This document shows positions 35,230-61,753 of a DNA stretch of 64,000 nucleotides, piece after piece. The notes under the pieces are model-generated. The model ran no database searches, was not told the origin of the DNA, and was given only the letters and a program-made list of their open reading frames with translations. Numbering within the stretch: position 1 is the first letter of the stretch; every line of letters starts with the position of its first letter. This DNA is from a virus (taxonomy: Duplodnaviria > Heunggongvirae > Uroviricota > Caudoviricetes). Where the stretch lies: the IMG/VR virus record IMGVR_UViG_2700989400_000004, positions 6,939-70,938 of that record; one strand, given 5' to 3'. Both the position numbers and the translations under genes were made by a program.

Positions 35230-36714
35230 TTAAAATCCGCGTAGGCGCTTGGGTAACATAAGGCCCATCGCCTGGGGTTGGCTCAATTCAGTGATACCCC
35301 ACACCATCGCGTCGAGTCGGTCCGGGGATTTTTTAGCGGTAGCTGGCACGTATTCCATCATTTGATTTTCCAGCATGTACAGGCTGCCTGTGTGGGCCAC
35401 CCTTCCTTGTGCATACAGTGCTGATATTGGCTCGGCGCGGGCGAATTTACCCTTGCTTGCGTGCACCTTAACAATGCGGCCCTTGAATCCGGCGTTACGT
35501 AGCGTGGCCTCTGCCATTTCGCCGCCCTGGTTGGTTTCGATAACTATCGCGTCAGCTTCATGGATGTTGTAAGCGTTCATTGAGGCTTGCGCCCATTCGT
35601 TAGGAGACATGCGGCCTGAGTAGTCACCGTCTACAGAATACTGAGCGTGCTTACCGCCACCATAAGCGGAACACGCCACGATCCCGGTTTCGTCAGACTC
35701 ATCAGATGATGTTGTTGCCGGGTCGATTGCTATCACCGTGCGGATCTTGTCCTGCGTTATCTGCATCCGGTGCGCGGCGGTTATCATCACTTCCGACCAC
35801 AATGCGCCCTCTTGATCGAACTTGCGCGGACGCTGCATATATTGAGCTTCGAATGTTCGGCGATGTGATTTAAGAGTTGATTCATCTTTATCACTATGCT
35901 TATGCAACCATAGCCAGCCGTCCGGCAGGTTGTGAGGAACAGGAATAGCGAATTCGTTTTCCGGGTATAGATCCCAATAGTCAAGACTGTTGTCGATCTT
36001 CACTGGCAGGCAAAGGTGATGCCATTTCTCACCACTACCGCCACGTAACAGGTAGCCGGACAAATCATCGTAGTGGATGCGCTGCATAATGACGATAACT
36101 GGCGTTGTTTGCACAGCCAGACGTGAAGCAAGCGTATCGTTGTAGTTGGTGTTAACTTTATTCCGCATCACATCAGAGTAAGCGTCAGCGGGCTTTAATG
36201 GGTCGTCGATAATCATCGCGCCGTTAAAGCCTGGCTCCATGTAACCAGCACGAAAACCCGTAATCTGACCGTGTGACGATGCGGCATATACCCCGCCGCC
36301 ATATTCCGTCCACCACATTGATTTGGAATTGGCGTCATTACGGATCCTCATGGGCCATAATTTCTGGTACTCCTGCGAACAAATCATGTTTCTGACTGTC
36401 GAGGAATTGAGTAACGCAAGATTGTCAGAATAGGAAACGTGAAGAAATCGTGTGCGGGGACTTATTGCGAGGGACCGCGCCATCATGTTGATTGTTGCGA
36501 TCGCGGTTTTACCATACCCTGGGGGAATGTTAATGATGAGGCGGGTAATTTCACCATTAATAACACGTTGTAGCGCATCATGGATGGCTATTTGATGGCC
36601 TGATATTAACATCTTCGCGCCGTTTGCCTGCTTGTAGAAATAACGGTTGAAGAACAGGCCATCGTTTTCGCATTTTGACTGAATAACCTCTTCTTTGATG
36701 GTCAACATAATCAC
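35230..36714 (-). CDS. terminase large subunit
   Basis: 494 aa; Walker A-like …NIPPGYGKTAIAT…; C-terminal nuclease-type region; coupled to small subunit. Confidence 0.85.
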   Translation of the reverse strand: MIMLTIKEEVIQSKCENDGLFFNRYFYKQANGAKMLISGHQIAIHDALQRVINGEITRLIINIPPGYGKTAIATINMMARSLAISPRTRFLHVSYSDNLALLNSSTVRNMICSQEYQKLWPMRIRNDANSKSMWWTEYGGGVYAASSHGQITGFRAGYMEPGFNGAMIIDDPLKPADAYSDVMRNKVNTNYNDTLASRLAVQTTPVIVIMQRIHYDDLSGYLLRGGSGEKWHHLCLPVKIDNSLDYWDLYPENEFAIPVPHNLPDGWLWLHKHSDKDESTLKSHRRTFEAQYMQRPRKFDQEGALWSEVMITAAHRMQITQDKIRTVIAIDPATTSSDESDETGIVACSAYGGGKHAQYSVDGDYSGRMSPNEWAQASMNAYNIHEADAIVIETNQGGEMAEATLRNAGFKGRIVKVHASKGKFARAEPISALYAQGRVAHTGSLYMLENQMMEYVPATAKKSPDRLDAMVWGITELSQPQAMGLMLPKRLRGF

Positions 36715-37196
36715 ACCTCATTTTCTACTTCCTGGACGATGCGGGCGATCTCTTCTTTCGTGATTTCAATCTGGACGGGCGCTTCTTCCTTGTTGCCGAC
36801 GATCTCCTGTGTGACGCGTTCGCCGTATTTGCGCGACTGAAGTTTTGCCAGTAGCCACTTGCGCGTTTCAATCATTAGTTGGTGGCGTCGCAACTGATCT
36901 TTATCTGCGTTCTCTGCTGCATCAGCCAGATCGATGATTTCATCAGCCAATACCTCGAAGCCGATCTCCTTCGCGCGCGCGTACATGATCGAGAATTCCG
37001 GTACATCCCTAAACCATTTCAGGATTGTTGAACGGGTAGGCATACCAGGCATTTTCGAAATTTTATTAATACTCTGACCATCCGCCACCAGTTCACATAT
37101 TTCTAACGCTTTTTCTTCTGTATAACCATGCGGACGGCCCACCCTTTTTGCGGCTGGCCTTTTATCGTCAGCTTTTGCCTTTTTAGTGCGGACCAT
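36711..37196 (-). CDS. terminase small subunit
   Basis: 161 aa; basic N-terminus and HTH-like segment; GAGGTG SD; overlaps TerL start. Confidence 0.7.
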   Translation of the reverse strand: MVRTKKAKADDKRPAAKRVGRPHGYTEEKALEICELVADGQSINKISKMPGMPTRSTILKWFRDVPEFSIMYARAKEIGFEVLADEIIDLADAAENADKDQLRRHQLMIETRKWLLAKLQSRKYGERVTQEIVGNKEEAPVQIEITKEEIARIVQEVENEV

Positions 37197-37206
37197 AATT
37201 CACCTC

Positions 37207-37290
37207 TCAATATCTAATGATGATATATACGCAACCCACACAACTTGCGCAGTATGTTAAAACTTCCAACCAGTCGAATAGCTCTTTCAT
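37207..37290 (-). CDS. micro-ORF 10 of array (27 aa, single hydrophobic helix)
   Basis: MKELFDWLEVLTYCASCVGCVYIIIRY; AAGGGT SD; start overlaps stop of micro-ORF 9 (ATGA). Confidence 0.35.
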   Translation of the reverse strand: MKELFDWLEVLTYCASCVGCVYIIIRY

Positions 37291-37430
37291 TGTTTACCCT
37301 TGAATCTCTGTTTTGCTTCTTTGTAAATAAGCCCGGTAATCATTACGATCACGTATACGCATAACAGTAACGCGGCAATAAGCACGCATGAGCAAACTAA
37401 GAACATTAACAGATCGATGAATTCAAACAT
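37287..37430 (-). CDS. micro-ORF 9 of array (47 aa, single TM helix, basic tail)
   Basis: MFEFIDLLMFLVCSCVLIAALLLCVYVIVMITGLIYKEAKQRFKGKQ; AAGGGA SD. Confidence 0.35.
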   Translation of the reverse strand: MFEFIDLLMFLVCSCVLIAALLLCVYVIVMITGLIYKEAKQRFKGKQ

Positions 37431-37440
37431 AATTATCCCT

Positions 37441-37512
37441 TTACGTAATCGAAAACGCCCAGATAATAATGACGATAGCCAAAACCATATAGATAAAATC
37501 TGACTCTCTCAT
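37441..37512 (-). CDS. micro-ORF 8 of array (23 aa)
   Basis: MRESDFIYMVLAIVIIIWAFSIT; GAGGG SD; ATGA overlap with micro-ORF 7 stop. Confidence 0.35.
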   Translation of the reverse strand: MRESDFIYMVLAIVIIIWAFSIT

Positions 37513-37589
37513 CTTTTTAACCCTCGATAAAAATCAACGGCAATAACTACAACTACAGCCACCAGCAATAGCATTTCATATGCGTTCAT
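37509..37589 (-). CDS. micro-ORF 7 of array (26 aa)
   Basis: MNAYEMLLLVAVVVVIAVDFYRGLKR; overlaps 3' end of micro-ORF 6 in another frame. Confidence 0.3.
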   Translation of the reverse strand: MNAYEMLLLVAVVVVIAVDFYRGLKR

Positions 37590-37683
37590 TGACACTACCT
37601 ATAACCAGACCAATGATTATGATTATGGCGACAATGCCTAACATCATTCCGCACATAATCGCCAGTAATTCGAATATATCCAT
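37576..37683 (-). CDS. micro-ORF 6 of array (35 aa)
   Basis: MDIFELLAIMCGMMLGIVAIIIIIGLVIGSVNERI; AGGTGA SD 5 nt upstream. Confidence 0.35.
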   Translation of the reverse strand: MDIFELLAIMCGMMLGIVAIIIIIGLVIGSVNERI

Positions 37684-37691
37684 ACTGTCAC

Positions 37692-37781
37692 CTATGGGCG
37701 ATCTCTGAACATCGCATAGAAAAACCATATAACAATCGCCAGAATAACCAGCGGTATTAACTCATAGAATGGGCCGTACAT
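37692..37781 (-). CDS. micro-ORF 5 of array (29 aa)
   Basis: MYGPFYELIPLVILAIVIWFFYAMFRDRP; AGGTGA SD; the ORF-track entry 37692..37886 is this peptide with an implausible upstream extension. Confidence 0.35.
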   Translation of the reverse strand: MYGPFYELIPLVILAIVIWFFYAMFRDRP

Positions 37782-37789
37782 AAATTCAC

Positions 37790-37864
37790 CTATACAACAT
37801 TCTTCCACCAGAAATAGATAATGACGGCGACCAACGACCACCAGATGAGATCGTAAATATTCAT
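37790..37864 (-). CDS. micro-ORF 4 of array (24 aa)
   Basis: MNIYDLIWWSLVAVIIYFWWKNVV. Confidence 0.3.
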   Translation of the reverse strand: MNIYDLIWWSLVAVIIYFWWKNVV

Positions 37865-37875
37865 GGTGAATACCT

Positions 37876-37962
37876 TTAGCTTTCAATGAATATCATGATC
37901 GCCAGCCATACAGCGACGCAGGCAGAAAGGATAATGAGCTGGTCAATCATATTGTCACCCAT
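37876..37962 (-). CDS. micro-ORF 3 of array (28 aa)
   Basis: MGDNMIDQLIILSACVAVWLAIMIFIES; second ATG has GGGTGA SD. Confidence 0.35.
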   Translation of the reverse strand: MGDNMIDQLIILSACVAVWLAIMIFIES

Positions 37963-38058
37963 CTAATATTTGCTCTTTACGGTTATCAGTACGGCGATAA
38001 CAAAGCCAACCAGAAATATAGATATACCTATTAATCCGGCGATGGTGCTATCGTCCAT
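37963..38058 (-). CDS. micro-ORF 2 of array (31 aa)
   Basis: MDDSTIAGLIGISIFLVGFVIAVLITVKSKY; AGGT SD. Confidence 0.35.
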   Translation of the reverse strand: MDDSTIAGLIGISIFLVGFVIAVLITVKSKY

Positions 38059-38060
38059 AA

Positions 38061-38144
38061 TCAACCTACGGGCCATTTTGGGGAAAACATTACAATCGCA
38101 GTTGCAGCCGCGCCGATAAATACACCTAGCAGGAAAGTAAACAT
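38061..38144 (-). CDS. micro-ORF 1 of array (27 aa)
   Basis: MFTFLLGVFIGAAATAIVMFSPKWPVG; GGGGGTGA SD; starts 3 nt after stop of the HExxH gene. Confidence 0.35.
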   Translation of the reverse strand: MFTFLLGVFIGAAATAIVMFSPKWPVG

Positions 38145-38146
38145 AA

Positions 38147-38689
38147 TCACCCCCGTTTAAAGCTCATAACGCGCGGCACAAGCGCTTCTTTTGCTTTCGG
38201 CTTACGTTTGCCTTTCTTCGCGGTTTTTTCTTCTTCCTTCGGCTGTTCTGCCTGTTCTAATGCCTGCTCAACGACTTCAGCCGCCTGCATTGCTGCAACC
38301 TGTGCTTCGTTTGATTCTGCCAGGATAGGGAAAAATGCATCAAAGATGCGGCCTACCATGTAAGCGTAAGTCTCATTCGCCGGATGAGATGGATCAGTGG
38401 TAGCCACGACGCCTACATCGCTTAAAACGTGAAATGTCGTGTGCGCCGCTTCATGTACCAGCGTTCCTAACTCATTGTCGAATACTGCGATCACGTAGAA
38501 GTTACCGCCTTTCTCACCAGTGCAAGTAAGCGTCAATCCTCCTGCCAGTTCGAAATCAGGCTCAATTGGAATTCCTGCCTTTTCGCAAAATTCATAAAAC
38601 ATCTCGCGGGTCGGGCAAAAGAAAACGGTTGTATGCTCAAAGAGCGGTACTTTGAATTGAGGCAATTTAATGCCTTTAGCCTTAGCCAT
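38147..38689 (-). CDS. zincin-like protein with HExxH motif and Lys-rich C-terminal tail
   Basis: 180 aa; …LGTLVHEAAHTTFHVLSD… (HEXXH) then …KEEEKTAKKGKRKPKAK…; AGGAG SD; directly precedes the micro-ORF array. Confidence 0.5.
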   Translation of the reverse strand: MAKAKGIKLPQFKVPLFEHTTVFFCPTREMFYEFCEKAGIPIEPDFELAGGLTLTCTGEKGGNFYVIAVFDNELGTLVHEAAHTTFHVLSDVGVVATTDPSHPANETYAYMVGRIFDAFFPILAESNEAQVAAMQAAEVVEQALEQAEQPKEEEKTAKKGKRKPKAKEALVPRVMSFKRG

Positions 38690-38974
38690 CAGAATAATCT
38701 CCTATTCTGAAAAATATAACCCCCGCAAAACTCGACACCGCAGGGAGTGAAAACAGCTATAAAACACTGAAAACGGCGCTTCATCAGTACCGTTTCCAGA
38801 ATTTTATAAAATTGGTGAATGGCGCTTTCTTCTACCCAGGTAGCGCCGACCTGTCAATGGGATGGATGATCCGGTATTACGTGTTTTCGACTATTCCGCC
38901 GTCGCTCGCGGGAAGGATTGGCCCGGTTATGGCTGGCTGGCAGAAACGGCGACACGTCCACGCACTGCCTGTAT

Positions 38975-39277
38975 TTACTCCGCGATCTTACCGATCTTGC
39001 TCATCTTCCACTCGTTCCCATGATGGCAATTACATGGCTTGTGTATTGACCGGACTGTTTCGAATTTCTCATTAATGATGTATGCCTCCGCATGTTCAGG
39101 AATATCCACCGTCGCCCAGCCGCCGTGCTCGTCCAGTACGCCCTTAACCTTCATTTGATATTTGCCAAAAACGTTTTCTTTTATTACGGAAAATGAAGGT
39201 GATAACTCAAAGTAATCCTCACTTTCTTTTAAAATTGTGTCGGTATGTTCTTTAACAATTAATTTCAGGAATAGCAT
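38975..39277 (-). CDS. hypothetical protein (100 aa) downstream of lysis cassette
   Basis: Protein-like ORF with CNCHHG motif; no recognisable family. Confidence 0.4.
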   Translation of the reverse strand: MLFLKLIVKEHTDTILKESEDYFELSPSFSVIKENVFGKYQMKVKGVLDEHGGWATVDIPEHAEAYIINEKFETVRSIHKPCNCHHGNEWKMSKIGKIAE

Positions 39278-39286
39278 AATCTACCT

Positions 39287-39769
39287 CTATTTCTGTCTTG
39301 TGCATTGTGTTCGTATGTAGTTTTGTAGTTCAGTTATTTTTGCATCTTTCTGTGCTAACCCTTCTCTGAGGGATAGATAATTTGATTGAGCGCTGGCAGT
39401 AGGTCTACAGGTGGCTCCATCAATGCGGCCGGTGGTTCCGGCGGGATCGGACACTCGCACAGGTATTGCGTTGACGTGCAACCGGATAGCACCGCTATCA
39501 ATACCAGCACGCAGATCAGCAATGTCGGACCTGATAGCTTTAATTTCATCGTGATACCTCTTATCAAGTTTTGACAGTTCGGCGTTTCGCTCCTTCATTT
39601 GCTGTATGGTGTTACTCGCTGTTTTTAATGCGCCTTGCGTCGTCGTTAGTTCTTCCTGTAAGCGCGTTACAGCTCCCTGTGTCTGACATAGTGCAGCGGT
39701 AAGCCCGACGATAATGCAAACAACCACGGCGATGATTAACGCCTTTATCTTGTCCACGTTTCCCCCCAT
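39287..39769 (-). CDS. Rz: i-spanin Rz
   Basis: 160 aa; N-terminal TM anchor then coiled-coil; last gene of lysis cassette with Rz1 embedded in +1 frame. Confidence 0.7.
39355..39549 (-). CDS. Rz1: o-spanin Rz1 (lipoprotein embedded within Rz)
   Basis: [24 protein letters not shown] lipobox then Pro-rich mature part (…[19 protein letters not shown]…); entirely inside Rz in another frame. Confidence 0.6.
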   Translation of the reverse strand: MKLKLSGPTLLICVLVLIAVLSGCTSTQYLCECPIPPEPPAALMEPPVDLLPALNQIIYPSEKG

Positions 39770-40236
39770 TCACAAACGGCATATTCAACATCACGGCGGT
39801 TAATTAACCCTTGCCATTTCTGACCACCAGCATAAATCCAGCGTTTAAGCTGTGCGCACGCTTCTGATTTCTTGCCGTCATTGAGTAGTTTTAATAAGGT
39901 TGATGTTTTGAAGTTGGTAGCGCCTACGTTATAGGCGAACGAGTAAAGCGCGGCGCGGGTAAAGTCGGAGATTTCTACCTTGATATAAGGGTCAATAGCT
40001 TTCGCCACCTTGTGAAGATCTTTATTAAGCAATGCCTCACATTCTGCCGGGGTGTAAGTCTTGCCTAGCATAATGTCTTTTCCGGTGTGACCTGCGCATA
40101 CGGTCCAGACACCAATAACATCACGGTATGGCTTGTATTCCACGCCCTCCAGCGGTTTAATCATCACGGCAGCAATTGCTATTGCCCCACCCGCCGCAGC
40201 CGCCAGAATCTGGCGTTTTAGCGTTTTGCTAATCAT
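39745..40236 (-). CDS. SAR endolysin (phage lysozyme, signal-anchor-release type)
   Basis: N-terminal weakly hydrophobic Ala/Gly-rich SAR segment (…[15 protein letters not shown]…) followed by lysozyme core …[33 protein letters not shown]… closely resembling phage 21-type endolysins. Confidence 0.85.
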
Positions 40237-40445
40237 AACTTATTCATCTCCAGGTTGTGCCTTTCCTGTTCGCGCTTGTTCTCCTGTCGCTTGTAGTACC
40301 AATTAACCGCGAATGTGCCTATCGTGCACCCGATACCAACTATCACGGCTATGTCATTCAGGGATAAACCGCCAATTATGGTTGTCAGAATACCAGCTAC
40401 ATAGCTTGCGGCCTCCCTTGTTCGCGTGATTAACGTGGCGATCAT
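40233..40445 (-). CDS. class II holin (pinholin-like)
   Basis: 71 aa, two predicted TM segments and charged C-terminus; GGGGGT SD; overlaps endolysin start. Confidence 0.65.
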
Positions 40446-43400
40446 TAATACCCCCAACAAAACAAAAACCCGGCGCGGGGCCGGGTGGATACAATTTCGC
40501 ATTGTTAGGAAATATTTTAATCCGTTTGTTTAATCCATACAAATATGGCTTACATCTTCCTTTCTATAAGGTCGTTATCCAGTAATAAACGCATGTTATC
40601 GCGACGCATACTACTTACTTTCCAATACTGGTCACTTAGTGTCTTTATGAAAATTTTGTCACCTTTTACCATATATGCAATCGAGTGATATTTATGGATA
40701 TATACACCATCTTCGATCTCATTCATAAATCACCAACCTTAATCCAGAATCCGCGCTTAATCGCCCTGATGATAACTTTTGTTGTCCCACGGAAAGGCGG
40801 TTCAATCCACGGCTCAAACTTATAAAGTCGCGTCAAAACGTGTTCACCCTCAAGGCGATAATAAGCGCGTGTAATCAACGATTGATATACGCCGTCATAT
40901 TTATGGTCGCTATTTCTCATTTTTGCGTTCCTTAATGGCTCTTTTGATCTGCGTGCGCGTGGCATCGACGAGAGCGATAAACACCGCTATAGGCCAAAAA
41001 GGGATGAGCCCTCCACGGTCGAGATCGTTACTTGTGATGAAACAAGCCATCAGGATAGCGCCAGCGATATAAAGGAGAACTACCGCCAGGATAAGCAATT
41101 CAATCATTCTCACCCCCTAAGCGTTGATATATTTCCTCTGCATCCTCCCCGCGCTCAAAGCAAAAGTTTTCAAATAGCCGCCAGTATTCAGCAAACGCTG
41201 ATAAATTAGTCATTGTTTATTCTCCTTCGTAAAAAGTCGTCACCAGTTCGGCATCAATTAAGGTGTTATGTTCTACCCAAACCCCGTGGCGCATTGCGAA
41301 AGCTATCTCACCAGCTATTTTTCGCCACATAGGAATAGATTCATCAAAATATGTTTTTTCCAATTCCTCATTGTATGTCAATTCGCAAAACCGACCACGA
41401 TTAACATCTTCAATCACGCGGGAGTACTCGCCATCAAACCTACTAACTCCGCGCCATAGTTTGATCACAACCATAATTAAACTCCGTTTGATGGGGCCAT
41501 CCGGCCCCGTGGTAAATTTATATTCGTTACAAGTTGTGCGGCAAAACATCCGGTCAAAATAGCTTTCCATCAGAAAACCCCTTTATAATCGACCGTGTAT
41601 TTCGCTATCAGGTTCCAATCGCAATAATTAAGCATGTCGCGCGGTTGCCAGCCTTTCATGCCAACCGCCCGCCGCGCAGCGTGGCGGCGATAATCGTCAT
41701 TAAGATCCGCAATGCACCACGGCTGGAGTACAAACATATAATTGGCCTCATTAATCAGGATAGCTACCCGTTTCCCTGTTGCCTTATCTTTTGCCCTGAA
41801 ATAATTCACTTTCACTTTCATTTTAATACCTCGTCGATCAGCATTTCTTCTTCCAGGTTAGCCGGACGTTTACGGAATATCCCGGCGAAGACAAGATCTT
41901 CCAGTAGGTCTTTGCGCTTAAATAACCATTCCTTCATTATTACCCCGTCATCGCTGCGATATACGACGCCGTTTTTCAGAAAATAAAAAGTATGGGTATT
42001 CGTCTGAAGGTATAAGTCTTCGTAAACGTCCATGATATTAACCCTCGACTACTTGCAGCCCACGCCCCTTGTCGCCCACGAAGTCGCCCAAGCTGAACGT
42101 GTACGACCACGCCGGATTGATATAATTTTCATCAGCACCGTGAGCAATAAGGTCTTTACCCAAAATGACGCAGGTCACATCATCAGAGTGAATAACGTCT
42201 ACCGTTTCACCGACTACGCGTTTTAATGACGGGTATCCGTGATCGTGCAAAAACTTAACCTTCATTATCCACCCCGTCTTTTTTGATTATTTTTCGAATC
42301 CCTTCAAAAATTTCCACGCTTGAGCTATCTATAATCATTTTTACATGTGGGTTATAGCGTTCCGATAGGTATTTTTGTATGTTTTCAATAGATTTAATAA
42401 ACATCCGATCTTCATCTTTAGTAAAATTACTGTTCATAATTCAATCTCCTAGCGGTCAATGCTTATTAAAAAATTCAATGATGGGTAGCCGTGATCGTGC
42501 AAGAATTTAACTTTCATATTTCTTTCTCTTGTAAGACCAACAATACCGCCAGCATTTCCCCGTCATGTAATGGGTCTGGAATAGCAAAAAATATGTCGCT
42601 GTTTCTGTCCGGCACTACAACGCGCATATTTCCTTGTTTGTCTTCATGAACAAACCACGGCTTTTCGTGTGGCTCAAACATACCAAAAAGCAATTTAAGA
42701 TCTATTTCTTCGCCCTTCGTGAATAACGATACATCCGTTGTGGCGATAACTAACGCTTTCTTGTCTGCCATTTTCTTCGCTCTCATTACTCTGTATCCCA
42801 TCGTTCAATACTGATTAAAAAGTCCCGGATAGCGTGGCGCTCGTCTCGCGTAGGTTTGCGCTTCCGGTAAATTTTAAAATCAAACCATTCTTTTTCTTGT
42901 TCGAAATCCAGATCGTAAGCAAGCGCCTCAATATATCCGCATTCGTGATACTGGTACGCTACGCCAGCACGAACAAAAAAGCGGGTTTTATCCCGCTTAT
43001 GCTCATAGATACGCATATTTCCCCCGCTATGCAGTCGTGTAGCTGTCTACTAACTTCTCATCCTTCATTCTGGCAAGCTGGCTAATATTCATCGTGTAGC
43101 CGCCATCAGAGAAAAGCCACTCCGCCGCCTTGCGACGAAAAGTAGTATCATCATGGTTGCGCGTCCATGTGGCGATCACCACGCGCTTTCCGTCAGTGGC
43201 AAACATAGATAATTCATTATCAACTACGTCGATAGCCTGCCAGATTTTTAGCTCCATGATTTATCCCCGTAAATTTTGAATAATTCCTGTGCTTCCTGAT
43301 CTTCGAATAACTTCATATGCAGATCATGCAGGCGTCGCATTGTGCGGAAGCGTGGTCTGAATTCTTGACTTCGTTTAATGCATTTACCACCTATTGAGTA

Positions 43401-44582
43401 AATATGTCCGTATGAATACCATCTGTTACCTACCCAAATTTGATATTCTTCACCATCATAGTTAATTTTGATTGTAAACTCGTCAACCTCCATTATTAAT
43501 CCTTTATCGAGGATATCATTTAACATATCATCCCATTCTTTGAGAAATGGCTGTTGATAGAAACCGAAAAGTGTATTTGCAGCGTGGCAAAGGTAATCAA
43601 GGATTATTTGCATATTATCACCACATCATATAGTAAACGTTATCATCAGCTAATGCGTCGGCGTCTTCCTGCGTCATGTGCCGCGCTTCCAGAAAGAAAT
43701 CATCATCATGCCATTCACTAACAAGCATACGCGCCCATTTACGGCGGCGTCGCTTATTGCGTCGCAGATCATCAAAAGCCATTAATGCTTTGTCGTATGC
43801 CCTTACAAGGCGCTTACGGTTACTTTTCATTTTCACCTCTCAACATCCAATTTCTGTCACATTTAATTGCGAATACCTTAACAGGATCAGGGCCGAATAA
43901 TGGATGAGTGATAGTTTTTACTTCGTACCCAAAATAAGGAAGGTTAATAATCCTGTGTTTTTCGTGGTTGGCAGGGTATCCCCATTTAATAATCAGGCGT
44001 TCATATTCCCGCCCTTCAAGACGTTTACGCCAATAGTCATTATAAAGCCGGTATTCCTCCACCTTCTTTCCAGTCCATATGGCGTGAAAGTATTCACCTT
44101 TCAGATTCAAATGTAGGTCTTTACTTGCCATCGCTATGATCCTGTAAACAGTCGTTATAGCCTTCTATATATCCGGTTAATCCGGTGTTACTCACTGACC
44201 ATTCAGCCGTCCGGCGCTTGATGGCCTCGTCCATCGTGATTTCACCTTTGCGATGACATCCGGCATCAATATAGCGGTTAACAACCGAAGATAGCCGCCC
44301 GCGTAGCTGTTGTGTTCCGGCGTAATATCGGGCCGTATCCGCAAGCTCGTTAATCAACTGGCGGTAAATATGTTCTTTTAATTTAGGCTTCATTATCGTC
44401 ACCCCGCTTGTAAATTTTGACAGGCTTAATAGGGATGGCGGGCAATTCGCCTTCATTTAATGCGCTTGCCATACCCAATATTAAACGCGCTTCCGCACCA
44501 GTGACTTTCTTACACCATGCGCCGCCTTTTTTATCTTGAAATAAGATAACAGCAAACTGATCGTTTATTTCCAGCTTATCCA

Positions 44583-45311
44583 TTATTCACCCCGTGTAAC
44601 TCGTTTAATTTCGCTTTCAGCGCGGGCCTCTTCTTTGAATAGCTCAGCTATGGCGTCTTCATAGAAAACCCGGTATTTCTTCCACCATGTTGATCGGCTT
44701 ACCGGAAAAACAAGCTGATTAACCGCCTGCCGGACGAGATCTACAGGGAAACGCGAGTACCCGCGCCCGCCGCAATGCTGGCACGTTTTGAATACTGGCA
44801 TTTCCGCCGCTTCGCTGGCTGTTTTATCCGGTACTTCGCCGCGCCCCTTGCACCGCTGGCAATGGTTTTTAACGTAGCCTTTGCCGCCGCACCGTGCGCA
44901 AATTGTTGATGTGTATTCGCATTCATGGTGAGGTAAAAGCCCGTTACCGCCGCACTTAGGGCAAACTTTTTCGGTCGCCGCACTCTGGCAATAATCCCGA
45001 AACGCGAAAACGGCAACAAGAATAATAAGTCCATTGCGCTGATCCTCGTTTAACTCCATCACGTATTCGTAATCTTTTGCCATCGATTTTAAGCGGTCTA
45101 TAAGCAACGACACGGCTTTATTTTTTTCAGCTTGCGATAGCTCCATCTTTCCCAAAAAAGCGCTATAACCCAGTGTTACGCGCGATTGCGCCATACCCGC
45201 AGCGGTTAGCGCATCCGTTGTATTAAGCGCATCCGGGGACGTGCCCCGGCTTTCATCTGATAATCGCGGTGATTTGGGAAAGTGGAATTTCAGAATGGAT
45301 TCTAAATTCAT
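44583..45311 (-). CDS. zinc-finger protein with four CxxCxGxG repeats (DnaJ-type); possible Q-like late antiterminator
   Basis: CPKCGGNG / CARCGGKG / CQRCKGRG / CQHCGGRG; lies just downstream of rusA/ninG-type genes as Q does in lambdoid phages. Confidence 0.4.
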   Translation of the reverse strand: MNLESILKFHFPKSPRLSDESRGTSPDALNTTDALTAAGMAQSRVTLGYSAFLGKMELSQAEKNKAVSLLIDRLKSMAKDYEYVMELNEDQRNGLIILVAVFAFRDYCQSAATEKVCPKCGGNGLLPHHECEYTSTICARCGGKGYVKNHCQRCKGRGEVPDKTASEAAEMPVFKTCQHCGGRGYSRFPVDLVRQAVNQLVFPVSRSTWWKKYRVFYEDAIAELFKEEARAESEIKRVTRGE

Positions 45312-45476
45312 TATTTGCCCCCGTAACGCGCTGCCAGTCGTTTACGATCAGAAATAGACTGGACTAACTTTCTCTCAAGCTCTTTCAGTGCTAGCAATTC
45401 GCGCATGTGAAAAGCCTGGATTTGTCGGACCGTCTCTAAATCATGCTCGTCGCGCTGAATACCTATTTGCAGATCT

Positions 45477-45896
45477 TTAATTTCGTTTTTCATTGTCACC
45501 CCACATATTAGTCGCGTATTCGTCAATATCCGGTAGTAGGTCGCCGCGTTCGCGGATCTTAATAAACAAGCGCCCGCCTTTTACCTTCCGGCAGCGGACA
45601 ATTTTTATTGAGTCGATTTGCCCGTCATCCTTCCAGAATCCGGCATAAGTAAGGCTGTCAAAAAGGCATTTAGGGATATTGTCCAGATCTCTGATCCGGT
45701 TATCCGGCGGCGCGGCATAAATGGCGATTGCCAGTCGGCAAGATAGGTTAATGTTTAAATTTAATAGCTCGATGATGTCTCTTACTTGTTCCCTGTATTC
45801 CTTCCCCACTTTGCTGATATAGTGAAAACCGCGCGAATGTCGGTAATAGCGGTTATTCGACGGCGGGTAAGGCAGGCTAAAAGAATATTCATTCAT
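45477..45896 (-). CDS. rusA: Holliday-junction resolvase RusA
   Basis: N-terminal …SLPYPPSNNRYYRH… and …DLDNIPKCLFDSLTYAGFWKDD… match the RusA family. Confidence 0.8.
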   Translation of the reverse strand: MNEYSFSLPYPPSNNRYYRHSRGFHYISKVGKEYREQVRDIIELLNLNINLSCRLAIAIYAAPPDNRIRDLDNIPKCLFDSLTYAGFWKDDGQIDSIKIVRCRKVKGGRLFIKIRERGDLLPDIDEYATNMWGDNEKRN

Positions 45897-46498
45897 GCTG
45901 CCTTTCTCCTTAAGGCGTCCAATTTAGCCTGATAGATGTTTATTAGCTCCTTACATTCTGCGATCGTCCATTTATGCGTATCATTGTTGTTTTCCAGTGC
46001 TACCACCCTTGCGAGGCCAATTTTTCGAATCAGTGCCGGGCGATACCCTCCTATGTTTCCGTCTAATGTCTGGTTGCAGTGCCTGCATTGTTTATGGCAA
46101 TTATCCTCGTTAAAGCGAAGGTGTCCTGCGGCGGCAACCGTCCTGTAATGGCCCGCATCCCACCCGCATTGCTCACCGTAGTAAGTCCCGCAGGATATAC
46201 ACGGCAAGCGCGCGTCACGTTCGCGGATATAGGCGTTGAATACGTTTTGAACTTGCTTGATCCAGTAGCTGCGCGGATTTAACTGTTTCCGCTTCCGGTT
46301 GCGTTCTTCCCGCTGGCTATCGCGGCGTTTCTTCCGTTCCATCGCCTTCATAGCCTTTTCACGGTCGCGGCATAGCTGATCAAACTTCAGTTCTTCCAGA
46401 CATTCATCGCTGCACCACGTCTGATTGTGATATTTAGGCTCAAAAAAAACGCCGCAGCACTTGCAACGGCGTCTTATGGGTTTTTTAGGGTTTTGCAT
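45893..46498 (-). CDS. ninG: NinG (Rap) recombination protein
   Basis: Cys-rich N-terminus (…RRRCKCCGVFFEP…) and …CGWDAGHY…CHKQCRHCN… as in lambda NinG; ATG at 46498 with GGGGTGGA SD. Confidence 0.75.
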   Translation of the reverse strand: MQNPKKPIRRRCKCCGVFFEPKYHNQTWCSDECLEELKFDQLCRDREKAMKAMERKKRRDSQREERNRKRKQLNPRSYWIKQVQNVFNAYIRERDARLPCISCGTYYGEQCGWDAGHYRTVAAAGHLRFNEDNCHKQCRHCNQTLDGNIGGYRPALIRKIGLARVVALENNNDTHKWTIAECKELINIYQAKLDALRRKAA

Positions 46499-46512
46499 AA
46501 AATCCACCCCAA

Positions 46513-46689
46513 TTATTTTCGATTTTCGATTTCGTTCGGCTTTGCGGCGGCTCCGGCCCTTAGCCAATGATCTACGCATTTGTTGCACTCGTTACAGTCT
46601 CCTTTGTTTGGGTTACACAAATTGCACATTGCCCGCATTACGCATTCGCGCTCGTAGTCGTCATGCCACGCATACCTGTCATCGTTCAT
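46513..46689 (-). CDS. small Cys-rich (zinc-ribbon-like) protein, 58 aa
   Basis: Not in ORF track (<60 aa); MNDDRYAWHDDYERECVMRAMCNLCNPNKGDCNECNKCVDHW…; strong AGAAGGAG SD. Confidence 0.4.
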   Translation of the reverse strand: MNDDRYAWHDDYERECVMRAMCNLCNPNKGDCNECNKCVDHWLRAGAAAKPNEIENRK

Positions 46690-46852
46690 AATTTGATCTC
46701 CTTCTGTTAGGCGATGTGTTTCCGCATTTCAGCGGGGCCGGATTTTTAAAGAGCATTTCGTTTGATTGCAGTATACAAAATGGATGCACCTGGACAAAGT
46801 AAAAAGCGCCATTATGTGACGCTAATCACACAATGACGCCATTTTGTAAACT

Positions 46853-47617
46853 TTAGTCCGGTAAAACGCGGTTAAGCGTCGTCCGCGTGATGGCCCGGTC
46901 GTTAGCCAGGAATACAGCACGGGCGAAGCCGCGCGGCGTTAGTGAGCGGATCATCTTAGTGCGCTTCGACTTTCCGCCTAACTTCGCGTGCTGCTTACTG
47001 TCTTCCCATTCATCCGGCATTGGTACAGGCCGGAATAGCGGCTGCTTAAATCCATTCCCACACCAAATACATGTTTTCTTCGTGTAGGCGTCGCGGGCGG
47101 CGATGTATTCCGGGAAAGCGGGATGTTTATCATCTTCCGGCAGGTAGCCACCATAAGCGCACGGATTGAAGATAAAATCCGGTTTACGCCATAACGTTGA
47201 TAGTGCGCCTACCGGATTTTCTACCATCCACGGCACGTTATACATATTCGCCAGTTTTTCTACCAGTTTTGCGTTATGCGCCGCCTTCACCTGGAAGTCA
47301 GGGTCTTTTTTCCGTTTATCAGCGAACCAGCGAGCGCCTGAAACGGCGAGATTGTCGCATGGAGGAAAGCCCAGGATAATGTCAGGATCTGGATATACAG
47401 ACAATTCAGGGGAGAACATTACCAGGAAATGGCTATCAATCCAGACATTGACATATTCAATATTGGGATGAATTATTTTTACCCCGTCATAATCCCCGTG
47501 ATTAGCGCCGTCATAGTTGAAGCAATAACATTTATAACCAGCGTCCGCCCAATCTTTAACGGCGTACCCGCTGCCGTCATATAGCGACCACACCACCCAA
47601 TTTCTAAGCCCGCTCAT
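46853..47617 (-). CDS. putative DNA methyltransferase-like protein (C5-cytosine MTase-like motifs, atypical)
   Basis: Motif I-like SLYDGSGYA, motif IV-like GFPPCDNLAVSG (PC-D not PC-Q), motif VI-like MVENPVG; short (254 aa). Confidence 0.4.
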   Translation of the reverse strand: MSGLRNWVVWSLYDGSGYAVKDWADAGYKCYCFNYDGANHGDYDGVKIIHPNIEYVNVWIDSHFLVMFSPELSVYPDPDIILGFPPCDNLAVSGARWFADKRKKDPDFQVKAAHNAKLVEKLANMYNVPWMVENPVGALSTLWRKPDFIFNPCAYGGYLPEDDKHPAFPEYIAARDAYTKKTCIWCGNGFKQPLFRPVPMPDEWEDSKQHAKLGGKSKRTKMIRSLTPRGFARAVFLANDRAITRTTLNRVLPD

Positions 47618-48159
47618 TTTCTACCCTCAAACGTGAAATAGCGGCGCATGATGATAGTAATCACCGTTACCGCTGCCATTTTTGAGATAAATTGCATAGC
47701 TGATATTTCCGGCATAAATGCCATAAACGATAGCGTTGGGAAAATTAACGCATCACCTATGGCGGACGCTATATTTGCAGGCCATCGTTTTGAATCAAAG
47801 TCACCAGGCAAAACCCGGTAAACGCCGCCAGAAATAAGCGCACCGGAAACAACCGCGACAAATGACGCGATCGCCACCATTCCGGCATCGTAATTTATCA
47901 GCACAGTGATTGCGCCAGCGGCGGCGCATGTTGTAGCCGACCATTTCAGGCCGCCGTCATATAACAGGAAGTCACGGATCATCATATTGACACACACAGC
48001 GGCTACCGTGGTGATCGGAATTACCCACGGGCCGCAATGGTTAACAATAAGATTGATGATCACGAAAACGGCGACATAAACGCAGGCTAATAACCTGTCA
48101 ATTGTCACCCTTTCCATTTTTATGATACCCCGCCGCGCGTAATAGTGATTCGTTGTCAA
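47614..48159 (-). CDS. polytopic inner-membrane protein
   Basis: 181 aa with about five hydrophobic segments; possible transporter; coupled to the methyltransferase-like gene. Confidence 0.45.
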   Translation of the reverse strand: MTTNHYYARRGIIKMERVTIDRLLACVYVAVFVIINLIVNHCGPWVIPITTVAAVCVNMMIRDFLLYDGGLKWSATTCAAAGAITVLINYDAGMVAIASFVAVVSGALISGGVYRVLPGDFDSKRWPANIASAIGDALIFPTLSFMAFMPEISAMQFISKMAAVTVITIIMRRYFTFEGRK

Positions 48160-48602
48160 ACTTCACATCAAGCCGATTAATAATCTCACCACCGTTAAAC
48201 ATCACAGTTGGGATTGTCCCTGGTGCAATAGATGGCTCTGGTCCAGCAAGATCAGCAAAAGTTTTCTTCAATCCACCGATAGGGAGATCAAAAACGCCCT
48301 GTTTTTTCTTTTGTTCTTCCTCCCGCTCCGTTAATATTTGCTCCGCTTTTAGCGCGTTGTAGCTAATCAAATCAATTAGCGTGTCTGTCGGATCGCTATT
48401 ATTGCTCAAAATAGCTTCTAATCGCGCCTCCTTGAGACAAATTAGTAGATCCCATACATCAAGCGGGGTTAAATTTGCCCCCTTCTTAGCGTTGTAAATA
48501 GCGGCTATTTTTGGCGCTGATTTTTCCTCTTTTTTGTCGTATCCGTTTTGCTTACCTCTTTGCTCTATGGTTTCCGCCGCAAGTCTCAATAAATCTGTTG
48601 CC

Positions 48603-49091
48603 TTAGTCATTATTTGCACCTCTTGCGTATAGCTCTTTACGTGTTATCTGCGTGAAAATACATTCATGTTTGCACCGTGGATGCCAGATCAAGAACAAGC
48701 TCCCTTTATTGTTTCCGCTTGCTGGCTTACCCGTCGCAGCATTAATAAACGCCAGCCGCCCGCGCGTGATTAAGCGACATTCGCTTGCCGTCTCCAGGCC
48801 GTTCATAAACCAGTTAACAGAGATATCAGCGGGCAACAACATTACACAGCCAATATGATTTCGGTGATGTTCCATCGCTGCCTTATCTACGAATGGCCCC
48901 GGATTCGAATATGGCGGATTAAGCCAGACATATTCACCAGGCATTGCTACCGCTCCCCACGGATAATGGAGTGTGTCCATCTCTTCGGTTATATATCGCG
49001 GAACTAATGCGTTTGCCTTGTTTGCCGCCACATCCGCGACGAATTCGAATTCACGGTCCATTCCTCTAAAACGGGTTTTGGCGTTTGCCAT
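48603..49091 (-). CDS. phage-type DNA N6-adenine methyltransferase (Dam-like)
   Basis: …EYVWLNPPYS… catalytic NPPY motif in a ~160-aa phage Dam-type protein. Confidence 0.6.
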   Translation of the reverse strand: MANAKTRFRGMDREFEFVADVAANKANALVPRYITEEMDTLHYPWGAVAMPGEYVWLNPPYSNPGPFVDKAAMEHHRNHIGCVMLLPADISVNWFMNGLETASECRLITRGRLAFINAATGKPASGNNKGSLFLIWHPRCKHECIFTQITRKELYARGANND

Positions 49092-50120
49092 AAGTCCTTT
49101 ATTTCTTTTGGCGTATGGCTTCCGCCGTAATCATTTTTCATTACGCCCCCTTAGAAATAATCCTGATCTGCTCCCCAGCGGTTATTCAGATATCCCACCA
49201 ACCACACAAAACGCTCAATACTGATTAGCGGGGCGACCTTGCGATAATGCTTATCTAATATCAGCCGCGTGGCTTTATCGCTATATCCGTTTCTTTCTAC
49301 CTCTGCTTTGCAGGCAGAAAGCGCCGCGCGTGCGGCAGTTTTTACGGCGTTGAATTGCGGCTCTGACAGGTTGAATAAAGCCATATAATCACCACGGATC
49401 ATCTCAATAAGTCGAGGCCACCCAGAAAAAACCCACGAAAACACTAAAAGCGAATAGCACGCGTATACCCAAAAGCAATTCCGCCCACGACTGAACATCA
49501 GGAAGCGACCATGTGATAAACATTGCGCCGACGATCAGGACGGCAATAACAACGGCGCACGCCAGGAAAAATAAAAGCGCGGCTGAAAGCCACGCCCCAA
49601 AAAAGTGAAACACTTCTCTTAACATTTAAACGTCCTCAATTACCCCGCCTTTCACGCGTTCTTTAATATCCCATACGTGAGGCTTACACATTTCTTGATA
49701 ATAGTGATCCGGCCTGCTGCCGAAATACCATTTGCCATCCATATAAAAATAAACGCCCGAAAAATTACCAGGTGCGGCCTTTGTTGCTGCTTCTGGAATT
49801 TTCCATTCTCTGTAGTGTTTAAACTTCATACATTAACACCGCCTTTTTAAGTTCGCTTAATTCAAAGTGCATCAAGCGAAAATGCTGTACACCGCCAACA
49901 ATACTGACCTGATAAATATCACCAACGCAGTTATAGTAATAACAACCCAATTGACCGATTCCGGCTAATTTAGCGTTATCCGGTATCATGTATTCGCCAA
50001 CCTTTTTCATATTCAGCCTCACAAATATTTTTCAATCACCCAGCGGAGAAACAAACCAACCGCCACGATCCCCCAGCAACAAACCATGAAGTAAAACTCG
50101 GCCTCATTCGCACTCATTCC

Positions 50121-55357: not shown

Positions 55358-56005
55358 TTATGGCAGATTTACGATCTTCGCGTCCACCACCACGCCAATA
55401 ATTTTTGATTCAGGATTTAGCGGGATTGGTGGATACAACGGATTAAGCGAACGTAAAAGCCTTTGACCTCCATCAATAATCAACTGTTTAAACGTCGGCG
55501 TTTGCCCTTCCTCCAATTGGGCTATAACCAGTTTGCCGTCAATAGCTGGCGCGTGTGGATCAACAAGTATCATCGTTCCCGCCGGGATGCTCAATCCTTG
55601 CGGCGCGTTCATCGATTCACCTTTTGCAACCAGCCAATAACTATCATCCGAACAAATCACGCTAGTGTTAACGTGCGGTAATGATGCGCGTTTTGCTTCT
55701 TCCATGTAGTTTCCTGCGTCTTTCCAGTCAATCACCGGATAACGCCCTACGTCGAGCGGTGGCGCTCCCGGCAGTGTATTAGAAAGTGAATCATCAATAA
55801 CCATCCCATCATGTGTGACCGTAAACTGCCGACGACCAAGCGCCCGCATGATCCGCGCAATATCTTCCAGGTTAGGCTCACGACGACCATTTAGCCAGTG
55901 TGATAAGCCGCCCTTTGTGATCCCCATGAGATCCGCCAATGAATCCTGGCTCATACCTTGCGCCCGCATGAGTTGTTTAGCTAAGTCATACCATTTTGTT
56001 TTCAT
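55358..56005 (-). CDS. cI-like repressor (HTH + LexA-type S24 peptidase domain)
   Basis: N-terminal HTH (…QDSLADLMGITKGGLSHWLNGRREP…) and C-terminal autocleavage domain (…VAKGESMNAP…AGTMILVD…); divergent from replication operon. Confidence 0.8.
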   Translation of the reverse strand: MKTKWYDLAKQLMRAQGMSQDSLADLMGITKGGLSHWLNGRREPNLEDIARIMRALGRRQFTVTHDGMVIDDSLSNTLPGAPPLDVGRYPVIDWKDAGNYMEEAKRASLPHVNTSVICSDDSYWLVAKGESMNAPQGLSIPAGTMILVDPHAPAIDGKLVIAQLEEGQTPTFKQLIIDGGQRLLRSLNPLYPPIPLNPESKIIGVVVDAKIVNLP

Positions 56006-56571: not shown

Positions 56572-57639
56572 ATGAAGTGGTTTAAGCATGATAGCGATGC
56601 GAACCGCGATGAAAAACTTCAAAACGTTTTGCTCGATTATGGTCTGGAAGGATACGGTCTTTATTGGTACTGCCTCGAACTAATCACTTATGACGTAGAT
56701 CAGCATAATCTCACTTTCGACCTTCGACATGACGCGAGAATCATCGCGCGAAATGTCGGTTCGACTGAAAAACGTGTAGAAGAAATGATGAAATACTTCA
56801 TCGAAATTGGTTTATTTGAATGTTCTCAAGGCCATATAACATGCTTAAAGTTATTGAAAAGGCTGGACCAATCAATGACTTCTAAGAGTGGTTACAGAGC
56901 TGCTATAAATGCAGCAAAAGAACAATTCAAATTAGAAAAGTTAATCAACCCAACGCCAAAAGGTCATGATAGGGTCATGACCGGGTCATGGCAGGGTCAT
57001 GAATTAGAATTAGAAGAAGAATTAGAAGAAGAAATAGAAAAAGATATATACACTTCGTGTATTAGCGAAAATGAACAAAAAACGGTCAATCAGGGGGGTG
57101 ACTTTCAGATAAGCGAAGCCGCCTTGCGTTGTCTGGCTTTCTACAACGAAAAAGCAGGATGCAAATGTCGTGACGCTAAACCATTCATCGAACTACTGAC
57201 AGAAACAAAAACACGTAAGGCATATACGGAGGAAGAGATCACATTAGTAATTGAGTGGGCTTTAACACAATGGCATAGCCGGAGTGGAGTACCTAAGCCT
57301 ATCAACATTTGCCGGGTAACTAAGTTTGATGGGTATCTGGCTGATGCTGAACAATGGCGAAGAGTTACAGCTACTGTTAACGCTGCTGTCGTGGTATCAG
57401 CATTTAACCAGACATTTGACGGCCTGTTACCGCCTGCCGAACTGGATCGGGATTTGGAACGTAAGATCTATGCGTTCACTGACTACCTGAAAGACAAAAG
57501 CATCACTGGCTTTATCGCTTACTTTGAAGCGTTCAAAAACACGGCTTCAGATTTTTACTTCGGCAATGGCTTTACCGCGACACTTGATTTCCTACTTAAA
57601 CCAAAAACGCTACGTGACACGCGCGCGGGCGTTCTTTGA
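56572..57639 (+). CDS. replication initiator / replisome organizer (O-like)
   Basis: N-terminal MKWFKHDSDANRDEKL… typical of phage replisome-organizer N-domains; conserved phage replication C-terminal region; contains iterons. Confidence 0.75.
   Translation: MKWFKHDSDANRDEKLQNVLLDYGLEGYGLYWYCLELITYDVDQHNLTFDLRHDARIIARNVGSTEKRVEEMMKYFIEIGLFECSQGHITCLKLLKRLDQSMTSKSGYRAAINAAKEQFKLEKLINPTPKGHDRVMTGSWQGHELELEEELEEEIEKDIYTSCISENEQKTVNQGGDFQISEAALRCLAFYNEKAGCKCRDAKPFIELLTETKTRKAYTEEEITLVIEWALTQWHSRSGVPKPINICRVTKFDGYLADAEQWRRVTATVNAAVVVSAFNQTFDGLLPPAELDRDLERKIYAFTDYLKDKSITGFIAYFEAFKNTASDFYFGNGFTATLDFLLKPKTLRDTRAGVL
56961..57050 (+). repeat. putative replication origin: four iterons plus AT-rich tract inside O-like gene
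   Basis: GGGTCATG repeated four times at 11-bp spacing (56962-57001), then aattagaattagaagaagaattagaagaagaaatagaaaaag. Confidence 0.6.
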
Positions 57640-57772
57640 CTATCCATTATTACCAAAAAACCAAAATTACCCACAAAACAAGCTCACCAGCGAGCTAAAT
57701 CGCATGGGGTGCTACACTTGCTTACCTTTTTGCGATTAGCTCGTTAGAAAGCGATTGAGGGAGGATTTAGCT

Positions 57773-57874
57773 ATGAACGGTAAACGCATGTTCGCCCTGG
57801 CTTTCGCGATCGCGATGGCTATCGCTGTTAACGTGATGCTGTTCGGCGGGTTGTACCTGCTTGCGCATCCATAA
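57773..57874 (+). CDS. small hydrophobic membrane peptide (33 aa)
   Basis: MNGKRMFALAFAIAMAIAVNVMLFGGLYLLAHP; GAGGGAGG SD; preceded by long imperfect inverted repeat (57691-57743). Confidence 0.4.
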   Translation: MNGKRMFALAFAIAMAIAVNVMLFGGLYLLAHP

Positions 57875-58025
57875 CTACCCAGCCTGATTAAATTCGATTT
57901 TAAGCCACTTTTTAGCGCCACTGACGCAATAAGACACTGCAACATGTGCAAACGTGTTACGCGGTGGGATTTTGCGTTGTAGCGCGTCTGAGGCGTTATA
58001 TAGAAAATTAAGAAAGGAGGTATAT

Positions 58026-59081: not shown

Positions 59082-59115
59082 TGTATACAAAATGTAAACC
59101 GGAGGAAATAACGTT

Positions 59116-60234: not shown

Positions 60235-60252
60235 ACCGGAGGCAATACCATA

Positions 60253-61674: not shown

Positions 61675-61753
61675 TTAACTTGAGTAAACGGCTTACCGGA
61701 AAGTTGACCGCTTTCTGGTGGCTGTTTTCGCGCTTAAAACGAGGCGAAAAACA

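Follow-up and report, generated by a model that had tools for sequence, protein, structure and literature searches.

The window analyzed here, a 64,000-nucleotide (nt) stretch of the IMG/VR virus record IMGVR_UViG_2700989400_000004 (positions 6,939 to 70,938), carries a gene for a Q-type late antiterminator and, 4.07 kb downstream of it and immediately before the holin gene, a conserved non-coding island (Table 1). Every gene in this part of the window lies on the minus strand. A reading of the sequence by itself (the sequence-only reading) had singled out the gene as the only late-antiterminator candidate, with four DnaJ-type CxxCxGxG repeats and a position next to rusA/ninG, and had noted that about 4 kb of small genes separates it from the lysis cassette; either the late promoter would lie elsewhere, or the protein would not be Q. 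These observations were borne out: the translation contains CPKCGGNG, CARCGGKG, CQRCKGRG and CQHCGGRG, a 71-amino-acid (aa) open reading frame (ORF), RusA and NinG (PF05866, PF05766) lie upstream, and small same-strand ORFs fill the 4.07 kb. From the comparisons described below, we consider it likely that the Q protein of this phage, a relative of coliphage mEp021, works in the fashion of lambda Q at the distant island, the small genes being the distal end of the early operon.

Table 1. Positions of genes and sequence elements in the Q-to-holin region of the window
Feature	Position	Strand	Basis or remark
nutR2-like site	46722..46755	minus	sequence; just downstream of t4-like terminator
NinG	45893-46588	minus	PF05766
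RusA	45477-45896	minus	PF05866
71-aa ORF between RusA and Q		minus	
Q antiterminator gene, 242 aa	44583..45311	minus	Q-lambda family
Block of 17 small co-oriented ORFs	40550..44583	minus	ORF list and sequence
Small ORFs, Q-proximal	44383-44583, 44121-44393, 43820-44131, 43618-43830, 43248-43613, 43027-43257	minus	
Small ORFs, middle	42786-43016, 42514-42801, 42255-42437, 42038-42265, 41818-42033, 41570-41821	minus	
Small ORFs, holin-proximal	41217-41570, 41100-41213 (37 aa), 40910-41107, 40723-40965, 40550-40726	minus	
Conserved non-coding island, proposed pR'-qut-tR' cassette	40449..40551	minus	blastn, alignment
-35-like hexamer TTGTAT, weak, 17 bp before -10	40537..40542	minus	sequence, alignment
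Spacer segment AAACAAACGGAT between -35 and -10	40520..40531	minus	alignment
-10 hexamer TAAAAT, invariant in all relatives	40514..40519	minus	
-10-like hexamer AACAAT, 7 nt past -10	40501..40506	minus	proposed sigma-dependent pause element
Intrinsic terminator ACCCGGC-CCCGC-GCCGGGT + TTTTGTTTTG, proposed tR'	40458..40486	minus	terminator scan
Holin, 70 aa, HP1 family, ATG 40445	40233..40445	minus	PF16080, E 1.2e-18
Endolysin	39745-40236	minus	PF00959; PHROG match (phrog_7/phrog_13 for endolysin and Rz)
Rz	39287-39769	minus	PF03245; PHROG match (phrog_7/phrog_13 for endolysin and Rz)

The candidate protein belongs to the Q-lambda family

A profile comparison with Q families, the check that the sequence-only reading had proposed, gave the candidate a score of 107.5 bits with Pfam family PF03589 (cut-off 26.7; E 3.7e-31). 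PF03589 is the Q-lambda family (PMC9388147); its assignment to the Q family of phage 82 was rejected, as that source gives Q-lambda and the search of the Protein Data Bank (PDB) agreed. In addition, phrog_127 ("anti-termination protein Q-like") matched residues 1-240 of the 242 (E 5.4e-78), and phmmer aligned the protein with lambda Q (PDB 7UBM, 7ubm_Q; E 2.9e-37) in two stretches on either side of an insertion. An AlphaFold model built on 43 homologues had a predicted local distance difference test (pLDDT) value of 84, and the sole PDB matches of this model in Foldseek at E <= 0.001 were Q-lambda chains, the best of them 7ubn_Q, the Q chain of 7UBN, an engaged loading complex that contains NusA (template modeling score 0.73, normalized to the target). 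The fold of the family combines a body of four helices, with a helix-turn-helix, and a zinc-ribbon arm that holds four cysteines. Public records already annotate the protein as "antitermination protein Q". Judged by its sequence and modeled fold, the 242-aa protein belongs over its full length to the Q-lambda family, and the alternative that it is not Q fails against all four comparisons (PF03589, phrog_127, phmmer and the AlphaFold model).

Compared with lambda Q (structures 4MO1 and 7UBJ-7UBN), the most conserved part was the first 44 residues, with 25 of 44 positions identical in pairwise alignment (57%); it is residues 1-44 of lambda Q that refold into a nozzle on the RNA exit channel (PMC9388147). 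The DNA-binding body segments were 29-32% identical to those of lambda, and at only ~30% identity a different binding sequence is expected. Among residues whose roles are taken from PMC9388147, G39, L58, T206, the four zinc cysteines and the arm-tip residue E134 were kept, and V6 was replaced by I. The two proteins are thus alike in family, predicted fold, N-terminal nozzle segment and zinc cysteines, and differ in the zinc-ribbon "arm": a 33-residue insertion at its base (residues 117-149) gives the window protein a second pair of CxxCxGxG motifs (motifs 1 and 2) and a second Cys4 set. Motifs 3 and 4 align with the zinc site of lambda Q, C151, C154, C177 and C180 corresponding to lambda C118, C121, C144 and C147.

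Four CxxC pairs were found in 43 of 49 database homologues, including clusters with thousands of E. coli members, and the Q protein of phi80 (gp17 of NC_021190), only ~32% identical to the window protein, likewise has a long arm with four Cys pairs. On sequence grounds the DnaJ-type repeats, four in number, mark a long-arm form that is common in the Q-lambda family, and they do not point to another kind of protein. A DnaJ-like zinc-finger chaperone, or some other zinc protein that is no antiterminator, would account for the four motifs and for a weak score with PF00684 (29.9 bits, under the cut-off of 32.7), but Pfam gave no match to a J domain or any other DnaJ domain, the NCBIfam DnaJ models scored far under their cut-offs, and the protein aligns end to end with Q proteins, lambda Q itself carrying two such motifs as its zinc ribbon. 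This explanation has next to no probability; the matches in family and fold already rule it out.

A conserved island lies upstream of the holin gene

In megablast searches of 50,697 phage records the Q-to-holin stretch matched only mEp010, mEp013, mEp021, mEp044, mEp515, mEp554 and MagusPhagus, at 82-90% identity; it also matched prophages in 35 of 5,426 complete E. coli genomes. Similarity at the DNA level and the arrangement of the genes identify the window as an mEp021-like (mEpimmI) prophage, mEpimmI phages being Nus-dependent non-lambdoid coliphages (PMC11893012). The record of mEp021 (MH706966) shares with the window the order NinG, RusA, Q, small genes, t5 and holin, the 82-90% DNA identity across Q and its neighbors, and the island; it differs in having only ~8 small genes (1.9 kb) from Q to t5 and in its holin type. 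For comparison, 44 related loci were fetched from IMG/VR via the Q protein, which with mEp021 made a set of 45.

Directly after Q, the relatives compared had no conserved promoter, pause site, terminator or non-coding sequence. The Q stop overlaps the start codon of the next ORF (ATAATG), and the sequence that follows is coding, varies at synonymous sites and, in mEp021 and one other locus (L016), gives way to unrelated genes right from its first base. A late promoter and qut site placed here as in lambda, with the small ORFs as late genes ahead of the holin, would occupy the canonical position, and 5-24 nt past the Q stop there is indeed a -10-like TAAGCT followed by the exact lambda pause hexamer AACGAT (TAAGCT-7-AACGAT, 44578-44560). 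We rejected this candidate and regard a promoter beside Q as very unlikely: the motif lies within the coding sequence of a conserved ORF (phrog_35000), synonymous changes destroy its -10-like hexamer in several relatives (GATAAGCTG to GACAAGTTA), the whole segment is missing from mEp021 and L016, and it has neither a convincing -35 nor a terminator within 90 nt. Moreover, with such a promoter t5 would come to lie, without apparent purpose, 4 kb into the late operon.

Directly upstream of the holin gene, blastn detected an island block of 83-100 bp at 84-100% identity in 7 mEp-type phages and 35 E. coli genomes. The island was present in 43 of the 45 fetched loci, the remaining two being cut short, and its 14-mer CTAACAATGCGAAA occurred exactly and once per locus in all 44 loci that extend far enough, always just upstream of the holin and 1.9-6.7 kb beyond the Q stop. 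It was kept despite differences among loci in the upstream gene and in holin type. Invariant columns made up 74% of the island core, compared with 28% of Q third-codon positions and 79% of Q first and second positions. The terminator stem was constant save for one A-to-G change that keeps pairing, and five of the six loop columns varied. In a distant lineage (Q 70% identical), with 26 small genes spread over 6.5 kb, TAAAAT-6-AACAAT and this terminator likewise precede the holin. On its left side the conserved late module ends within the promoter spacer, at ~-25.

On the minus strand the island reads TTGTAT, 17 nt, TAAAAT, 7 nt, AACAAT GCGAAATTGTATCC, hairpin, TTTTGTTTTG, Shine-Dalgarno and ATG. 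Nowhere else in the 64-kb window is a -10-like hexamer combined with both AACRNT at 5-8 nt and a terminator within 90 nt. AACAAT retains the A at position 2 and the T at position 6 that are most important for sigma region 2. The terminator is t5 of mEp021 (TERM_5), annotated directly upstream of the holin in the mEp021 record. We propose that transcription starts at ~40506, within AACAAT, and predict by analogy with lambda a pause at +16/+17, near 40491/40490; with the hairpin beginning at ~+21 of the predicted start, the leader RNA would be ~45 nt. The best reading of these data is that pR', qut and tR' are separated from Q by a hypervariable block of accessory genes.

The whole leader folded no better than shuffled sequence (z -0.56), a small hairpin in the 5' leader was not conserved, and compensatory changes were absent throughout the 19 distinct sequences, so that the case for the terminator comes from its invariant stem and variable loop. 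Nor did Q subtype (240 or 242 aa) covary by inspection with island subtype (two -35-region types), which makes it unlikely that specificity is determined by the variable upstream part.

Likeness to known late promoters

The island follows lambda in the order of its elements, namely a -10, 6-7 nt, an AACxAT pause-type hexamer, an intrinsic terminator and the holin. The lambda promoter reads TTGACT-17-TAAATT-6-AACGAT-GGG, in which AACGAT, occupying +1 to +6, acts as the sigma-dependent pause element, and its terminator lies further downstream, at +194 (6S RNA); the window reads TTGTAT-17-TAAAAT-7-AACAAT-GCG, and its predicted leader of ~45 nt compares with ~194 nt in lambda. The annotated pR' of phi80 reads TTGCAT-17-TAGATT-7-AACGCT-GGG and has its annotated Q site in the spacer and its first terminator ~45 nt downstream, so that a short-leader layout is already known in the subfamily. 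Two conventional lambdoid relatives, L052 and L053, whose long-arm Q proteins are 40% identical to that of the window, have AACGATGGG shortly after Q, with a terminator ~35 nt on in L052 and, as read from the sequence, ~85 nt on in L053. A candidate target site with the right geometry thus appears to lie at 40551-40458 of the window, albeit with an unconserved -35. Within its spacer segment AAACAA and GAT are invariant among the relatives, and they form a candidate Q-binding element by analogy with phi80 and with lambda, whose Q binds between -35 and -10 (PMC9388147).

The window departs from these systems in the distance between Q and its presumptive target. In the canonical cassette the Q gene is followed directly by pR' (PMC9388147, Fig. 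1 legend). The lambda target lies ~45 bp from the Q gene, the phi80 pR' starts ~40 bp after Q with the holin within 0.5 kb, and in both of these, as in P22-like phages, L052 and L053, pR' or the holin is found within a few hundred bases of Q; the candidate pR' of the window is 4 kb away (1.9-6.7 kb in relatives), a trait of the layout and not of the protein family. Accessory genes also separate Q from the holin by several kilobases in the Stx-converting lambdoid phages (e.g., 933W). Their pR', however, adjoins Q, and stx and the other accessory genes lie downstream of it as Q-dependent late genes, whereas in the window the accessory genes precede the proposed pR' and would belong to the early phase. 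As the Stx phages illustrate, the holin can sit kilobases beyond pR', and the premise of the sequence-only reading that Q must directly precede the holin was too strict; what normally follows Q is pR'. With nothing conserved beside Q and a cassette resembling lambda pR' directly upstream of the holin, sequence and comparison support the other alternative of that reading, and the puzzle it raised is largely settled toward a late promoter that is elsewhere.

Several observations weigh against a promoter of the lambda kind in the island. The TTGTAT position is not conserved (TTGTAG, TTGTGG or TCGCGC in relatives), and the consensus promoter scan did not call the proposed promoter, which has 8 of 12 matches and falls below the threshold. 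One island type has TCGCGC at -35 and no extended -10, which makes an autonomous sigma70 promoter doubtful in those phages, and because the -35 is unconserved and essentially absent in that type, the island is perhaps not an autonomous promoter in all phages of the group. Beside the lambda pause element, just upstream of it, is a TTGACT that serves as the docking site of sigma region 4; an element of this kind is not evident in the island. The hairpin begins only ~4 nt past the predicted pause, closer than in lambda or phi80 (~+46). The register may also be another one, with the -10 at C(A/G)TA(T/A)T ~25 nt further upstream and TAAAAT and/or AACAAT acting in pausing. Finally, the study of mEp021 mentions a Q-like protein and describes no late promoter or qut site (PMC11893012). 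A variant in which Q loads at a sigma70-dependent pause (TAAAAT and/or AACAAT) before t5, on polymerase arriving from the early operon, appears quite improbable to us; early and late operons would in that case be one transcription unit gated by Q at t5.

Early antitermination and the role of t5

PMC11893012 characterizes an N-like antiterminator, Gp17, three nut sites (nutL, nutR1 and nutR2) and five terminators, of which t1, t2 and t5 are given as experimentally demonstrated (t5 in the Fig. 7 legend), and places nutR2 and t4 downstream of the methyltransferase gene (also in the mEp021 annotation). Upstream of ninG, the terminator scan of the window found a strong 16-pair t4-like terminator (46840-46805, minus strand), after which come a promoter-like TTGTCC-16-TATACT (46797-46770), a boxA-like TGCTCTTTAAAAA (46755-46743) and a boxB-like hairpin CCGC-TGAAAT-GCGG (46735-46722), all on the same strand. 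The segment 46755-46722 is probably nutR2 of the Gp17 system, the assignment of boxA and boxB being our own reading of the sequence, and the promoter-like site might feed the ninG-Q segment independently.

Since t5 was reported as demonstrated in work on early antitermination by Gp17 (PMC11893012), and the same strand carries a nutR2-like site further upstream, the island could be no more than an early-operon terminator and a ribosome-binding site for the holin, with Gp17-modified polymerase from nutR2 reading through to turn on the late genes and Q acting elsewhere or being dispensable; the unconserved -35 would fit as well. Conservation, however, extends ~45 nt upstream of the hairpin and includes TAAAAT and CTAACAATGCGAAA, for which a terminator has no need, and the TAAAAT/AACAAT spacing copies that of the lambda and phi80 pR'. 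In addition, Q was full length (240-242 aa) in 46 of the 46 sequences examined, with the segment that forms the nozzle on RNA polymerase strongly conserved, and the authors of PMC11893012 state that phage development requires both N-like and Q-like proteins. We therefore judge this explanation rather unlikely.

An additional nut site for Gp17, by which early transcription would pass t5, is extremely unlikely. It can be drawn in the island, where TAACAA resembles the 3' half of boxA and ACAAU-GCGAA-AUUGU gives a boxB-like 5-bp stem with a GNRNA-type loop, yet one of its five base pairs cannot form in 8 of the 19 distinct sequences, with no compensatory change, the hairpin is not used in the minimum-energy fold, and it differs from the boxB of the nutR2-like site. 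Its position 4 nt before the terminator would leave the complex little room for assembly, and the published nut sites are elsewhere (PMC11893012).

Proposed mechanism and significance

In the lambda-like mechanism that we favor for the island, sigma70 RNA polymerase would start at ~40506 and pause at ~+16/+17, at the -10-like sequence just after initiation. Without Q, the polymerase would terminate at t5 and release the short leader. Q bound in the promoter spacer would engage the paused complex together with NusA, its N-terminal segment forming the nozzle on the RNA exit channel, and the Q-modified polymerase would read through t5 into the holin, endolysin, Rz/Rz1, terminase and structural genes. 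Polymerase modified by Gp17 at the nutR2-like site would earlier have run through ninG, rusA, Q and the small genes up to t5, and the small genes would be co-transcribed with Q and expressed ahead of the late genes.

The mechanism expected is that of lambda, and we regard the window as a layout variant of a known system, unusual in arrangement and apparently ordinary in operation. The protein is of a known kind, and the phage group has been published; as far as the literature we searched shows, a Q gene split from its presumptive target by a hypervariable block of 2-7 kb has not been described. If the island is the target of Q, the textbook Q cassette can be split by 2-7 kb of rapidly exchanging accessory genes, and a widespread group of E. 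coli gut phages exhibits this. According to Echols and colleagues in 1976, lambda Q reportedly works best in cis, and the layout proposed here would bear on that old observation. It would also assign the small genes of unknown function (~10-25 per phage) to the early and not the late phase, and it would suggest as an annotation rule that -10/AACxAT/terminator be sought beside the holin rather than beside Q. For the mEp021 system, in which early N-like antitermination has already been studied, the island and Q would form a late switch that is compact (~100 bp plus one protein) and testable. A milder reading, also improbable in our view, is that the constitutive leader of ~45 nt would be a small RNA of the prophage comparable to the pR' leader of Stx phages, whose constitutive pR' yields a short terminated RNA in lysogens (PMC7547250), and that the hypervariable early block between Q and the island would be a reservoir of host-takeover or anti-defence genes.

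The small-ORF block

The run of small ORFs after Q that the sequence-only reading had described was found, with a lower count: in place of about 20 ORFs of 58-121 aa there are 17, of which 16 fall in that size range and one has 37 aa. They are tightly packed, with stop and start codons often overlapping. Fourteen of the 17 matched PHROG families, all of unknown function, which indicates that most are real phage genes; none had a significant Pfam match, and Pfam, NCBIfam and PHROGs assigned no function to any. One is labeled "RNA-binding/ASCH" by RefSeq in relatives, a label that Pfam did not confirm here. A search of Rfam at E <= 1 over 36000-50000 returned nothing and ARAGORN found no tRNA in the window, so there is neither a tRNA block like that of the Stx phages nor a known RNA element. 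Being upstream of the proposed promoter, the small genes are probably, and most simply, the distal end of the early operon, which would be expressed before the late genes.

Across the 44 relatives the block varied from 1.9 to 6.7 kb, with roughly 7-27 ORFs of mosaic content. Rough clustering gave ~33 families, only two of them in all 44 loci, and the block appears as a mosaic drawn from a limited pool of small genes (loci L002-L045, L048 and L050). Larger genes occur occasionally: a PAPS-reductase-like gene of ~250-275 aa is present in L048 and three other loci, and in the distant relative L050 a Lar-type restriction-alleviation gene lies directly after Q. In the window, 42450-42517 (minus strand) is a truncated duplicate of the 5' end of ORF 42038-42265, located ~250 nt upstream of the intact copy and encoding MKVKFLHDHGYPSL followed by a stop. 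The duplicate borders a 60-aa ORF (42255-42437) that occurs in the window alone among the 45 loci, and it looks like the scar of a cassette insertion via recombination at the gene start. A terminator-like hairpin at 42979-42998 (minus strand; AAGCGGGATAAAACCCGCTT then TTTTTGTT), 18 nt inside ORF 42786-43016, could attenuate transcription within the block or be due to chance.

Lysis genes and other features of the prophage

The holin is the first gene of the late operon. The sequence-only reading had placed the left edge of the region at 40502, which is only the start of the mechanically called holin ORF; the true start is almost certainly the ATG at 40445, which is preceded by a Shine-Dalgarno GGGGG at 40451-40455, within the conserved island, and RefSeq annotates a 213-nt gene with the identical start in the closest E. 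coli relative. Endolysin and Rz follow, and inside Rz, in another frame, lies an Rz1-type o-spanin ORF (39355-39567, minus strand), which the mechanical ORF list begins at a TTG; its translation shows a signal sequence and an LSGC lipobox. Further downstream are a 180-aa protein and the small and large terminase subunits.

An integrase gene (4479-5729, minus strand) adjoins a LysR-type host gene, and from its position and the gene layout the prophage appears to extend from ~4.4 kb up to the right end of the window or beyond, and so to take up most of it. A CI-like repressor (55358-56005, minus strand; HTH_3 and Peptidase_S24) shares its strand with the ERF/Q/lysis operon, and the replication genes (56572-64000) are divergent from it on the plus strand. 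Within the replication module GC content falls sharply to 0.31 in 58001-59000 (background ~0.45-0.50), across a 375-aa ORF (57954-59081, plus strand) that is flanked by a replication-initiator-like gene (56572-57639) and a DnaB-type helicase (60253-61674). The sole match of this ORF was a weak one to a DUF559 endonuclease-like C-terminus, and it may be a recently acquired gene.

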